Below are positions 5,655 through 64,000 of a stretch of DNA of 64,000 nt, one piece after another. Origin of the DNA: an uncultured archaeon (GTDB lineage: Archaea; Thermoproteota; Bathyarchaeia; Bathyarchaeales; Bathycorpusculaceae); assembly GCA_963782915.1 (NCBI GenBank), contig CAWALK010000001.1, positions 128,001 through 192,000 of the forward strand. The letters are read 5' to 3'. The position numbers were made by a program, and so were the translations under genes. Below the pieces are notes generated by a model. That model made no database searches. It was not told the DNA's origin and worked only from the letters and a program-made list of their open reading frames with translations. Every line of letters starts with the position of its first letter. The first letter of the stretch is position 1.

Positions 5655-5706
5655 GCAGACGGACAACCCTGTCCGATGGGATGTGGCCGAAAGGCTGAAC
5701 CACAAG
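5655..5706 (+). promoter_or_regulatory. Structured 5' leader of rpl15e (candidate ribosomal-protein leader)
   Basis: Hairpins CGGAC-AACCCT-GTCCG and GGCC-GAAA-GGCT flanked by GGGATGT/CTGA K-turn-like boxes; TTTATTT TATA-like box at 5621. Confidence 0.5.
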
Positions 5707-38625: not shown

Positions 38626-38753
38626 GTAGGTTTGCCGGTCAAAGGGCACGGGTTCCACCTGATCCCATACCGAACTCAGAAGTTAAACCGTGTTCCGTTC
38701 CCAGCTGTAGTGTGGTCTTAGGCCACGTGAACCTGGGAAAGCTGGCAGCCTAC
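38626..38753 (+). rRNA. rrf: 5S rRNA (stand-alone)
   Basis: Terminal helix TTGCCGG/CTGGCAG, CCTGATCCCATACCGAACTCAGAAGTTAA motif; TTATAT box ~25 nt upstream. Confidence 0.95.
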
Positions 38754-62037: not shown

Positions 62038-63127
62038 TTACCTTGTAATTTTAGCTTGACGCACCGTCTCCAAGCAATCAGCTGCTTCCTTGTTGTTAGC
62101 GAAGTATCGGCGGACTGGCTCCAAAATCTCCCCAAGCGAGGTGGCGACGCCGCTTTTAAGATCCATCGGATGCAGTTTACCCTCAACATAGCATGCTTCG
62201 AGTTCTTGGAAGCTATGGAATTCTACGTTGCCGCCGAATTTAGCTGGACGCTCGATTTTGAGGCAGTCTTTTTCGCGGAAGACAATGTATTTGCAGATGT
62301 CCATTATAGGATTGTACTTGACGGTTTTTTCGGGGCAGAACGATTTTGATAGTTTCTGCTTGATTTCTTCAGGTGTGTCGTAGATGAAGATGCATGTGTC
62401 AGGTTTGCTCTTTGACATTTTAGCTGATGCTATGGCTTCGCGTTCTTGACCTTCAGGAATAGGCCAAACAGCGGGTTTCGCTAAGTCCTTGAAGCAGGTG
62501 ATGGTGGATGCAGACGGGTTTCCAGTAACCGATTTTTTCGCCGATTTCTCTGGCAACCATGTTTGCTTTGCGCTGGTCCATGCCGAGTTGGCACATTTTA
62601 ACGTTCATTTCGAATATGTCCGCGACCTGCATGGGTGTGTAGAGGTAGTCGCTGACGTAGTGGGCTTCGCCTTCTTTTCTTCCAGCAATCTCAAGTGTGC
62701 GGGTGGTTCGGGCGATGGTGAGTTCTTTGGCTATGGCCATTGTTTTTGCCCAGTAAGCCAAATCATTGTATAACTCGTCTGAGTAGATGAATTCTACTTT
62801 GTCCGCTGGGACGCCTAGTGCGATCCAGCTGTGGCGGAAAAGGTCGGCTGCTTTGCGGATAAGTGCGAGGTCTCCGCCGAGTTTATTGTTCAAGTAAGCG
62901 TGCCATGTGGCTAGGAACACTTTGAAGCGTATGCCTGCTTCTGTGAAGTCTTTCATTTTGTAAGCGCAGATAACGCCAGTGCCTAAATGTACGAGTCCTG
63001 AGGGTTCAAAACCGTTGTAGGCGATTGGGTGCTCCTCAGTTTCTAGTAGTGCTCGTAGGTCTTCTTGGGTTACGACTTCTTCGGTTGGCAGTCTGCAGAT
63101 GAGCTCGATTTTTCTTTCGATGTCCAC
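62038..63127 (-). CDS. tyrS: Tyrosine--tRNA ligase (frameshift near 62487)
   Basis: YNGFEPSGLVHLG, YTPMQVADIF, GMDQRK, KMSKSKP, LHPMDLK. Confidence 0.95.
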
Positions 63128-63207
63128 TATTATTCCAGCTTTCTCTTGATTATTAGCCTTTAATGCTATTGTTGAACTTAAGAATTTAGAGTTAATTTTC
63201 GCGGGCG

Positions 63208-63533
63208 GATTGTCTCCCGACGTAACCTAACACTTTACCTCATAGCTGAGCGTCGCTTTAAGCTTGGTAAAGCTCTCTCGGCGCAGGAATTTATGCCCGT
63301 GCCCACCGTGTCCCTTGTTTGGGTGAACCCTTCGTCACTGCTAAGCAAGCGTAAGAGCTTGCAACTCTGTTGGGTCCGTCGTCAAGGGTGGAATTAGCCA
63401 GTGGGGAAATGTATATGCTAAACCAGTAAAGTTAAGCATTCCTATTCAAAGACTGCTTTTTTCTAAAATGCCCCGGCAAACCTTCACCCTTTGCAAGAGC
63501 TTCTCTAGATTCATACGGTTGTAGGCAACAATC
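63208..63533 (-). ncRNA. Candidate large structured non-coding RNA of unknown family
   Basis: 5' and 3' ends complementary; several internal helices with G-U pairs on the minus strand; C/D-like K-turn; no long ORF. Confidence 0.55.
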
Positions 63534-63584
63534 ATTTTCCTGTTTTTTATCCATAACGATTATACGTTAAAGGCAAAACAAAGA

Positions 63585-64000
63585 TTGGATGGCAACACTA
63601 AGCAAAGCCTCCTTCTGCTTCACAGTTGGCTTGGTTATCTTAATCGCTATACAAGTTATTGCACAAACCCCTATAATCGAATCTTCCCAGCCTACTCAAA
63701 ATTACATACAACCAATCGCCAACAACCAAATAGTTCTAGACGCAGCCAAACACGATGCGTTCAACTGCTACAACACCAACGGAACCGCGCCTGCCATAAA
63801 CGGCAATTCAGCACTCTTCTATGGCGCCAACACAACCAACACTTACTCCGATATAGTATCACAGACCACCGTAAAAGCCGATAAATCGCTCGTACTAGAA
63901 GCCCAAATAACCGCAAATGTAACCTGCTTTTCGGATAGTGGTGAGGACCAGTTTGCAGTTTTCGCCACAGACGACATAACCAACTACAAATCAGACGAAT
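63585..64000 (+). CDS. Secreted hypothetical protein, partial (frameshift near 63620)
   Basis: Signal-like N-terminus; the shifted frame is open to the window end (…VGLVILIAIQVIAQTP…). Confidence 0.6.

Follow-up and report, generated by a model that had tools for sequence, protein, structure and literature searches.

The window that we analyzed is a 64,000-nucleotide (nt) stretch from an uncultured archaeon of the family Bathycorpusculaceae (Thermoproteota; Bathyarchaeia; assembly GCA_963782915.1, contig CAWALK010000001.1, positions 128,001 to 192,000). Near its end, next to the tyrosyl-tRNA synthetase gene tyrS, the minus strand carries a gene for a small RNA (sRNA) at 63196-63406. We consider it quite probable that this RNA is a double box H/ACA guide for pseudouridylation of 23S ribosomal RNA (rRNA). 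It is most likely the Bathyarchaeia version of the archaeal multi-motif guides, such as sR-h45 of Haloferax and Pab40/Pf7 (HgcG) of Pyrococcus. The direct support consists of its conservation, its structure, the anatomy of its motifs, its complementarity to rRNA, the protein genes of the source genome and its presence in RNA libraries.

A Conserved and Structured RNA

An earlier note, made from the letters of the window, had described an RNA of 326 nt (63208-63533) closed by pairing of its ends. A structured RNA does exist here, but its true extent is shorter, about 63196-63406. The single-sequence observation alone is not above chance: the minus-strand fold of the 326 nt has a z-score of -1.34 and is equaled by 9 of 100 shuffles (plus strand: z -0.89). 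The reality of the RNA rests on comparison with relatives, not on a single-sequence fold. Similarity found by blastn among 60 relatives is limited to about 63191-63445 and is strongest at 63196-63337, while no alignment of 63407-63533 is obtained even with a relative that shares 90% identity in the core. This unconserved stretch on the 5' side reaches upstream of a conserved TATA-like box (63431-63440).

The three outer helices proposed in the note have their 5' strands in this stretch and for that reason are not features of the RNA. They are the terminal stem (63515-63533 with 63208-63228), the helix GAAGCUCUU/GAGAGCUUU, whose 5' strand is unaligned even in a close relative, and the long helix 63386-63489. 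Their 3' partners pair elsewhere, with covariation, in UCCUG/CGGGA, CCCACUG/CGGUGGG and CCCUUG/CAAGGG. The inner elements of the same fold have held up. The GGACCC/GGGUUC helix (63372-63377 with 63325-63330), the GCAAGC-UCUUAC-GCUUGC hairpin (63345-63362) and the CUUUACC/GGUAAAG helix (63266-63273 with 63232-63239) are retained in relatives with compensatory or one-sided changes, and so is the C/D-like kink-turn (K-turn) formed by CAGA (63366-63369) on the 5' side and AGUGACG (63333-63339) on the 3' side.

The note had suggested a search for homologs and covariation, and both exist: relatives are found, and their helices carry compensatory changes. With 20 aligned sequences RNAalifold predicts 41 pairs, of which 10 are compensatory. 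We wrote a structure of 11 helices by hand and built from it a covariance model, R1, which has 93 matches in 90 sources and matches the window over the full length of the model at 63196-63409 (236.3 bits). Among 73 distinct sequences, 91.6% of the cells are paired and 26 of the 54 pairs change on both sides. None of 500 shuffles reaches this level of pairing, and partners slid out of register give at most 44%. Among the 16 pairs that RNAalifold predicts for the 3' half at class level, 15 have compensatory changes. The Rfam search that the note had also suggested finds no family in the region: over 63100-63650, with E up to 10, there are four chance-level matches (E 2-9), none of which spans the element.

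The sRNA is present once in the source genome (a 3.28-Mb assembly). By blastn (E < 1e-10, the 60 relatives mentioned above) several other families have it, as do 28 of the 36 genomes that belong to the window's genus. Of 151 Bathyarchaeia genomes sampled, 92 contain a single full-length match to R1, among them all 33 from the same order (15 of 15 in the window's family, 18 of 18 from the other families). A second covariance model, R2, covers the 3' half only. It matches 58 of 151 Thermoproteota genomes, once in each; outside Bathyarchaeia these include 14 of 15 genomes in family f44, 8 of 8 in f45, 3 of 3 in f56 and 2 of 2 in f60. Judged by these matches, the distribution of the RNA is housekeeping-like. 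Some relatives carry a second sRNA copy about 1 kb away (locus L054: 446-667 and 1377-1586; L064: 1370-1586 and 2337-2554; L062: 3004-3062). The second copy is accompanied by a duplicated start of tyrS in L064 and is without the 5' half in L054. Two contigs with both the sRNA and tyrS, L061 and L069, are filed under a Limnocylindrales bacterium metagenome-assembled genome (MAG) and a Methanocella MAG, and have probably been mis-binned.

Two Probable H/ACA Motifs

The RNA can be read as two motifs, each with a lower stem, a pocket, an upper stem, a K-turn and an ACA box, and each lying inside an extra closing helix. The succession of stem, internal loop, stem and apical loop is present twice, as P2/pocket/P3-P4 and as P6/pocket/P7-P8/9, and the stems are backed by covariation. 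All of the features given below are on the minus strand, and the counts of conserved motifs refer to 115 distinct sequences.

In the 5' motif, the outer clamp P1 (CCCACUG with CGGUGGG, 63399-63405 with 63302-63308) has changed on both sides in all 7 of its pairs. The lower stem P2 (CCCUUG with CAAGGG, 63383-63388 with 63312-63317) is paired in 99.7% of cells, and 3 of 5 pairs are compensatory. The upper part (63325-63377) comprises P3 (GGACCC/GGGUUC), the K-turn CAGA/AGU-GA-CG, whose C.GA strand is kept in 103 sequences, and the P4 hairpin (63345-63362). Between lower and upper stems lie the two strands of the pocket. The 5' guide is ACGACGG (63376-63382), whose last two G are also the bottom of P3, and GACGGA is found in 103 sequences. 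The 3' guide is UC-ACCCA-AA (63318-63326), with ACCCA in 112 sequences. Directly 3' of P2 stands the ACA box (63309-63311); ACCCA followed by ACA within 4-12 nt is found in 112 sequences.

The 3' motif repeats this plan. Its outer clamp P5 (CGGGC with GCCCG, 63295-63299 with 63202-63206) is paired in 93% of cells, with compensatory changes in 3 of 5 pairs and, at class level, in 4 of 4. The lower stem P6 (UCCUGCG with CGUCGGGA, 63282-63288 with 63215-63222) is paired in 99.6% of cells and has compensatory changes at class level. The upper part (63232-63273) comprises P7 (GCUUUACC/GGUAAAGU; 98.1% of cells paired, 3 of 8 pairs compensatory, 5 of 6 at class level), a K-turn and the P8/P9 hairpin (63244-63263). 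In the K-turn, AA (63264-63265) faces AU-GA (63240-63243) with G.A and A.A pairs. The K-turn is canonical in another family (C-stem/GAU/GA versus GA/C-stem in genome G307). The 5' guide is CCGAGAGA (63274-63281), with GAGAGAG in 99 sequences; the 3' guide is GUUAGGUUA (63223-63231), continued by C 63222, with GUUAC in 94 sequences. The ACA box (63211-63213, in the context GGGAG-ACA-AUCC) is as constant as that of the 5' motif: GG[GA] has an ACA 0-2 nt after it in 112 sequences. In a relative, the alignment places this box on the ACA of HgcG motif 3. Possible pseudoknots of conserved unpaired strands (GACG/CGUC and ACCCAA/UUAGGU) were looked for by eye, and sequence variation gives them no support.

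The portions of Toffano-Nioche et al. (2015; PMC4652768) that concern guide geometry report that productive guides and all solved ribonucleoproteins (RNPs) have a GA stem of exactly 10 layers. The corresponding portions of that paper and of Muller et al. (2008; PMC2377435) describe the box as ANA, mostly ACA, 14-15 nt 3' of the pair that closes the pocket, and the latter also places it 14-15 nt from the target U. By direct count, both GA stems reach 10 layers, that of the 3' motif between G.U and G.A and that of the 5' motif between A-U, the third P3 pair, and the second G.A pair. From the ACA to this closing A-U pair the 5' motif measures 15 nt, and in family f44 the ACA spacing is 14-15 nt.

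Predicted Targets in 23S rRNA

We searched the organism's own 16S and 23S rRNA for sites where both guides of a motif could form Watson-Crick cores around 2-8 unpaired target bases. The guides ACCCA and ACGAC(GG) of the 5' motif flank exactly one rRNA site, CUGGGU-UUAGA-CCGUCGU, at position 2701 of the large-subunit (LSU) rRNA. Here ACCCA is complementary to UGGGU (LSU 2701-2705) and ACGACGG to CCGUCGU. With shuffled guides, any site at all was found in 154 of 5000 trials. We take this site to correspond to Escherichia coli 2580-2596, in the peptidyl-transferase center, with U2585/U2586 unpaired. The guides GUUAC and GAGAG of the 3' motif also flank exactly one rRNA site, GUAAC-UCUGA-CUCUC at LSU 2028, which is the loop of helix 69. 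GUUAC is complementary to GUAAC (LSU 2028-2032) on the 5' side of the loop, and GAGAG to CUCUC in the 3' strand of helix 69, and the equivalents of E. coli U1915 and U1917 are left unpaired. Shuffled guides found any site in 240 of 5000 trials. When single strands are examined with RNAduplex, the 5' guide of the 3' motif pairs best with helix 69.

From this complementarity, the 5' motif is predicted to act on LSU U2706/U2707 (E. coli 2585/2586), in the peptidyl-transferase center, and the 3' motif on U2033 and/or U2035 (E. coli 1915 and 1917). A canonical-rule alternative would have the 3' motif act on U2039. In one relative (G203:C66; L185 1501-1573, L186 1501-1556) the 23S rRNA is split by about 555 nt just after helix 69, and this insert is probably an rRNA intron.

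Transfer RNA (tRNA) was considered as a target as well. The notion of a guide for pseudouridine 35 (Psi35) of tRNA-Tyr, reportedly due to Muller and colleagues in 2009, was rejected: the anticodon region of the likely tRNA-Tyr gene is complementary to neither pocket. ARAGORN lists 24 tRNAs in the genome, none of them for Tyr, and the Rfam tRNA model has 50 matches. Two near-identical 152-nt tRNA candidates (G000:C2:5536-5687 and G000:C17:27047-27198), with C1-G72 and a CUGUAGA loop, are probably tRNA-Tyr genes with several introns. A tRNA hidden in the RNA itself was likewise rejected, as ARAGORN finds none in the window and the region has no match to the tRNA model.

Putative Protein Partners and RNA Libraries

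The source genome encodes three proteins of an H/ACA RNP, Cbf5 (443.9 bits), Nop10 (85.3 bits) and Gar1 (38.4 bits), all above the curated cut-offs. Protein binding, pseudouridine formation and the choice of the modified uridine are steps that we infer as follows. The sRNA of about 210 nt would be transcribed separately from the minus strand of 63196-63406. L7Ae would bind the K-turn in each upper stem, and Cbf5-Nop10-Gar1 would bind each lower stem with its ACA box. Both strands of each internal loop would then pair with 23S rRNA around unpaired uridines, which Cbf5 would isomerize to pseudouridine.

Six metatranscriptome runs contain part of the stretch. Four of them, from four studies, have contigs of 165-215 nt that all fall inside 63202-63390; one contig is identical to the window over 63212-63376, and in one run a sequencing adaptor is joined at 63204 and at 63210. 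The flanking segments 63000-63191 and 63408-63700 have no contig cover in the RNA runs, which is not evidence of silence. Because these are contigs only, with no DNA run alongside, they are a hint of a discrete and abundant RNA rather than proof.

Relationship to Known Archaeal Guides

The closest functional parallel is sR-h45 of Haloferax, which we compared by its published description, not by sequence. In the account of sR-h45 given in PMC7075261, Psi2605 is the product of the 5' stem-loop, and Psi1940 and Psi1942 are both formed by the 3' stem-loop, with UNUN unpaired; the same account describes spacings of up to 17-19 bases as functional in Haloferax. Mutation of an ACA or a G.A pair in sR-h45 has been shown to abolish the activity of the affected motif alone. 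The window RNA resembles sR-h45 in combining two H/ACA stem-loops within some 200 nt; the 5' unit would aim at a uridine of the peptidyl-transferase center (Psi2605 in sR-h45) and the 3' unit at both uridines of the helix 69 loop, with more than two target bases unpaired. Both RNAs also have an ANA/ACA 3' of each unit and K-turns that contain sheared G.A pairs. The window RNA differs in having the outer closing helices P1 and P5 instead of a long linker, and in leaving five target bases unpaired in both predicted duplexes.

The second parallel is Pab40/Pf7/Afu4 (Rfam RF00064, HgcG), which the relevant part of Muller et al. (2008; PMC2377435) describes as an H/ACA sRNA with three motifs in Thermococcales and Archaeoglobus; its motif 3, in Pab40, targets stem-loop 69. 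The HgcG model, whose gathering score is 77 bits, has 25 sub-threshold matches in 23 of the 151 Thermoproteota genomes searched with R2. Eleven of these overlap R2 loci (in 11 genomes) and one adjoins such a locus; the best match at an R2 locus scores 34.7 bits (E 2.6e-8) and the best overall 35.9 bits. At locus L180 the match runs across the whole RNA (22.6 bits), and in the alignment the cGAUGA, upper stem, GUGUUA, lower stem and ACA fall on HgcG motif 3. Since two independent models, R2 and HgcG, agree on loci, a distant relationship to HgcG/Pab40 is suggested. The likeness lies in this order of elements in the relatives, which is that of motif 3; the difference is that the window RNA has two motifs and HgcG three. 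The region aimed at by the 5' motif is presumably served in Pyrococcus by Pab91, not Pab40, by our own estimate of the numbering. Like the window RNA, guides known from one Thermoproteota lineage have a GA stem of 10 layers, and among them short or irregular lower stems and shifted boxes are tolerated. In the window RNA, by contrast, the lower stems are full and the ACA boxes retained, and the outer clamps come in addition.

The earlier note had suggested an L7Ae-binding noncoding RNA with a K-turn, of an unknown kind. The type of RNA proposed has support, as the K-turn is kept and the gene is separate and conserved, but the class is not an unknown one, because the anatomy is that of an archaeal box H/ACA guide and relatives give weak HgcG/Pab40 matches.

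Ends of the RNA and the tyrS Neighborhood

The limits of the gene (about 205-211 nt) are drawn from the covariance-model match, the limits of conservation and the metatranscriptome contigs. By these the RNA would start near 63406 and end at about 63196-63204. About 27 nt upstream of this putative start, and on the same strand, is a box that resembles a TATA box and B recognition element (AAUGCUUAAC, 63431-63440). It is kept as aAyrCTTAAy in relatives of the genus and family while the flanking DNA is not kept, and order-level relatives have a like box about 25 nt ahead of the 5' end of their longer RNA. We regard the box as a putative promoter of the archaeal TATA type. Beyond the window's family, the RNA is longer by about 25 nt at its start, where it forms a small K-turn hairpin (GGC-GAU-GA-nnn-GA-GCC). 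Other families of Bathyarchaeia and family f44 have this hairpin, which was lost in the window's family; at loci L112-L141 and L180 it stands alone about 15-45 nt upstream of the R1 match, as the 5' end of the RNA. On the other side, two AT-rich boxes, AAAUUCUUAAGUU and CAUUAAAGG, lie between the RNA and tyrS (63157-63186, minus strand). They are likely the tyrS promoter and possibly the terminator of the RNA too. Many relatives have a AACTTTTAAGTT-type motif right 3' of the RNA.

The gene tyrS itself (62038-63127, minus strand) is a neighbor, not a part of the RNA. It is found as two overlapping open reading frames (ORFs), 62453-63127 (224 amino acids) and 62038-62556 (172 amino acids), with a frameshift near 62453-62556. 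In a close relative (L032) tyrS is split at a different place. The break may be an assembly error of a long-read MAG, or real.

The earlier note had stressed the position next to tyrS, and on this point the relatives are divided. Among 113 distinct copies of the RNA, 47 have tyrS on the same strand no more than 200 nt downstream and another 21 have it at a distance of 200-1500 nt, but in 45 there is no tyrS in the fetched locus. The Pfam domain tRNA-synt_1b was found in 5 of 7 downstream same-strand ORFs of the relatives tested, and domains of the phenylalanyl-tRNA synthetase beta subunit in 9 of 12 upstream ORFs tested. Distant families have the order pheT, RNA, tyrS, which is the ancestral one. 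Where tyrS is not adjacent, the downstream genes are mutually unrelated (major facilitator superfamily transporters, PIN, PAS and fascin-domain proteins) or convergent. A TATA-like word is present in the spacer between RNA and tyrS in 34 of the 47 adjacent cases. As the RNA is kept without tyrS, the spacer carries a TATA-like word and the UAC loop is variable, we read the linkage as an old gene order, inherited with tightly packed and overlapping transcription signals, and not as regulation.

Alternative Explanations

The earlier note had also ventured that the RNA might be a tRNA-sensing leader, with UAC, a Tyr codon, in the loop of its perfect hairpin. Such a cis-acting tyrS leader, i.e., a T-box-like sensor of tRNA-Tyr or tyrosine that controls read-through, seems to us very improbable. 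The window RNA shares with bacterial T-box leaders a length of about 200 nt, a K-turn and a position upstream of a gene for an aminoacyl-tRNA synthetase. The ancestral order pheT, RNA, tyrS also speaks for a leader, as does the adjacency in 47 of 113 copies, which is kept even where the tyrosyl-tRNA synthetases are only about 44% identical. Against it, the RNAs without a nearby tyrS still score above 200 bits and keep their helices, and the genes downstream of them are mutually unrelated or convergent. Close relatives have ACACAAAG, CCCAAUAC or UCUGUAA in place of the loop UCUUAC of the window. The window RNA lacks a specifier loop and a T-box sequence, no terminator/antiterminator alternative was seen, and Rfam gives no T-box match in the region. 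It has a putative promoter of its own, tyrS in most adjacent cases has a TATA-like box in the spacer, and the contigs from RNA libraries end at the RNA's 3' end (a weak hint). The invariant bases are, moreover, explained by the H/ACA anatomy. There is next to no chance that the element is a divergent RNase P RNA, signal recognition particle (SRP) RNA or other universal RNA, to which the K-turn, the presence of one copy only and a length of some 200-300 nt might point. This explanation is already refuted: canonical RNase P RNA (RF00373, 184.5 bits) and SRP RNA (RF01857, 154.2 bits) are on other contigs of the genome, the note rightly saw no signatures of either here, and the region has no Rfam match to these families with E up to 10. 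Besides the canonical gene on C15, the archaeal RNase P RNA model has one further match in the genome, a weak one (G000:C25:81043-81180; 33.7 bits, cut-off 84). The idea that there is no RNA at all, and that a conserved protein-coding or DNA element was mistaken for one, is just as close to negligible. A 40-amino-acid ORF does overlap 63432-63554, but it sits in the unconserved part. Within 63196-63406 neither strand has an ORF of at least 40 amino acids, and the substitutions in the helices are compensatory.

A number of points weigh against a double guide, and they concern its geometry, its targets and its ancestry. For the GA stem of the 5' motif, the count of 10 layers holds only when the two bottom P3 pairs are assigned to the pocket; otherwise it is 12. 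In the 3' motif the ACA is 18 nt from the pair that closes the GA stem, not 14-15 (about 14 nt is obtained only when counting from the GGUUAC-GUAAC duplex), and the 2b.2n pair of the K-turn is A.A where A.G is standard. The extra helix right after each ACA (P1, P5) is without counterpart in the described archaeal guides. Both favored duplexes leave five target bases unpaired. Under the strict U-N/U-N-N rule, with 2-3 unpaired bases, there is no convincing target for the 5' motif in the rRNAs, 49 tRNA candidates, RNase P RNA and SRP RNA, and for the 3' motif there are three tied 10-base-pair sites, one of them in helix 69 (U2039). By duplex energy, single guide strands match rRNA no better than shuffles do: the best RNAduplex energy of the 3' guide is equaled by 76 of 100 shuffles and is not significant. 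The rRNA targets are identical in all genomes compared, and the helix 69 region is nearly identical in five relatives, so covariation between guide and target has no room to show. The HgcG gathering threshold is reached in none of the 151 genomes, the window RNA has no HgcG match even with E up to 10, and the matches at the same loci that speak for homology to HgcG are weak. Some of these points would fit an L7Ae-bound structural or scaffold RNA that is H/ACA-like but without guide activity, e.g., a degenerate guide retained for a different role, such as chaperoning ribosome assembly through pairing with 23S rRNA. The unpaired target bases, the 18-nt spacing and the clamps, the lack of a 5' motif target under the strict rule and the stand-alone 5' K-turn hairpin in other families can all be cited for it. 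We nevertheless hold such an RNA to be unlikely. The pockets are complementary to just the two sites that the Haloferax double guide modifies, and atypical UNUN pairing and 17-19-base spacing both work in Haloferax, according to what PMC7075261 reports on that guide; the ACA boxes, moreover, are nearly invariant, each being kept in 112 of the 115 sequences. Taken together, the clamps P1 and P5, the five unpaired target bases, the deep conservation of pheT-sRNA-tyrS and a TATA-like box of tyrS that abuts the 3' end of the sRNA may also point beyond an old gene order, to a clamped variant of H/ACA RNA with transcription or termination tied to the expression of tyrS, or to an RNP that acts noncanonically, e.g., by holding helix 69 and the peptidyl-transferase loop open while the 50S subunit is assembled. 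We find this idea distinctly unlikely. The double guide for 23S rRNA is the reading that we prefer.

Biological Implications

Elsewhere in the window Rfam finds an eL15 leader (5660-5706, 45 bits) and a lone 5S rRNA gene (38631-38750, 72 bits). A literature search on ACA sRNA, Cbf5 and noncoding RNA of Bathyarchaeota, which covered one literature collection, found no description of the RNA discussed here; the papers that it returned deal with ecology and genomics.

Through our analysis, an RNA gene that has escaped annotation, and that Rfam does not detect in Bathyarchaeia, can now be named. The analysis also removes a tempting but wrong lead, that of an archaeal T-box-like sensor upstream of tyrS. 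The covariance models R1 and R2 could seed a family model, and the predicted pseudouridine positions can be tested in archaea that have not been cultured. The findings suggest that a double guide for helix 69 and the peptidyl-transferase loop, which among the functional centers of 23S rRNA are the two most conserved, extends from Euryarchaeota to Bathyarchaeia and other Thermoproteota.

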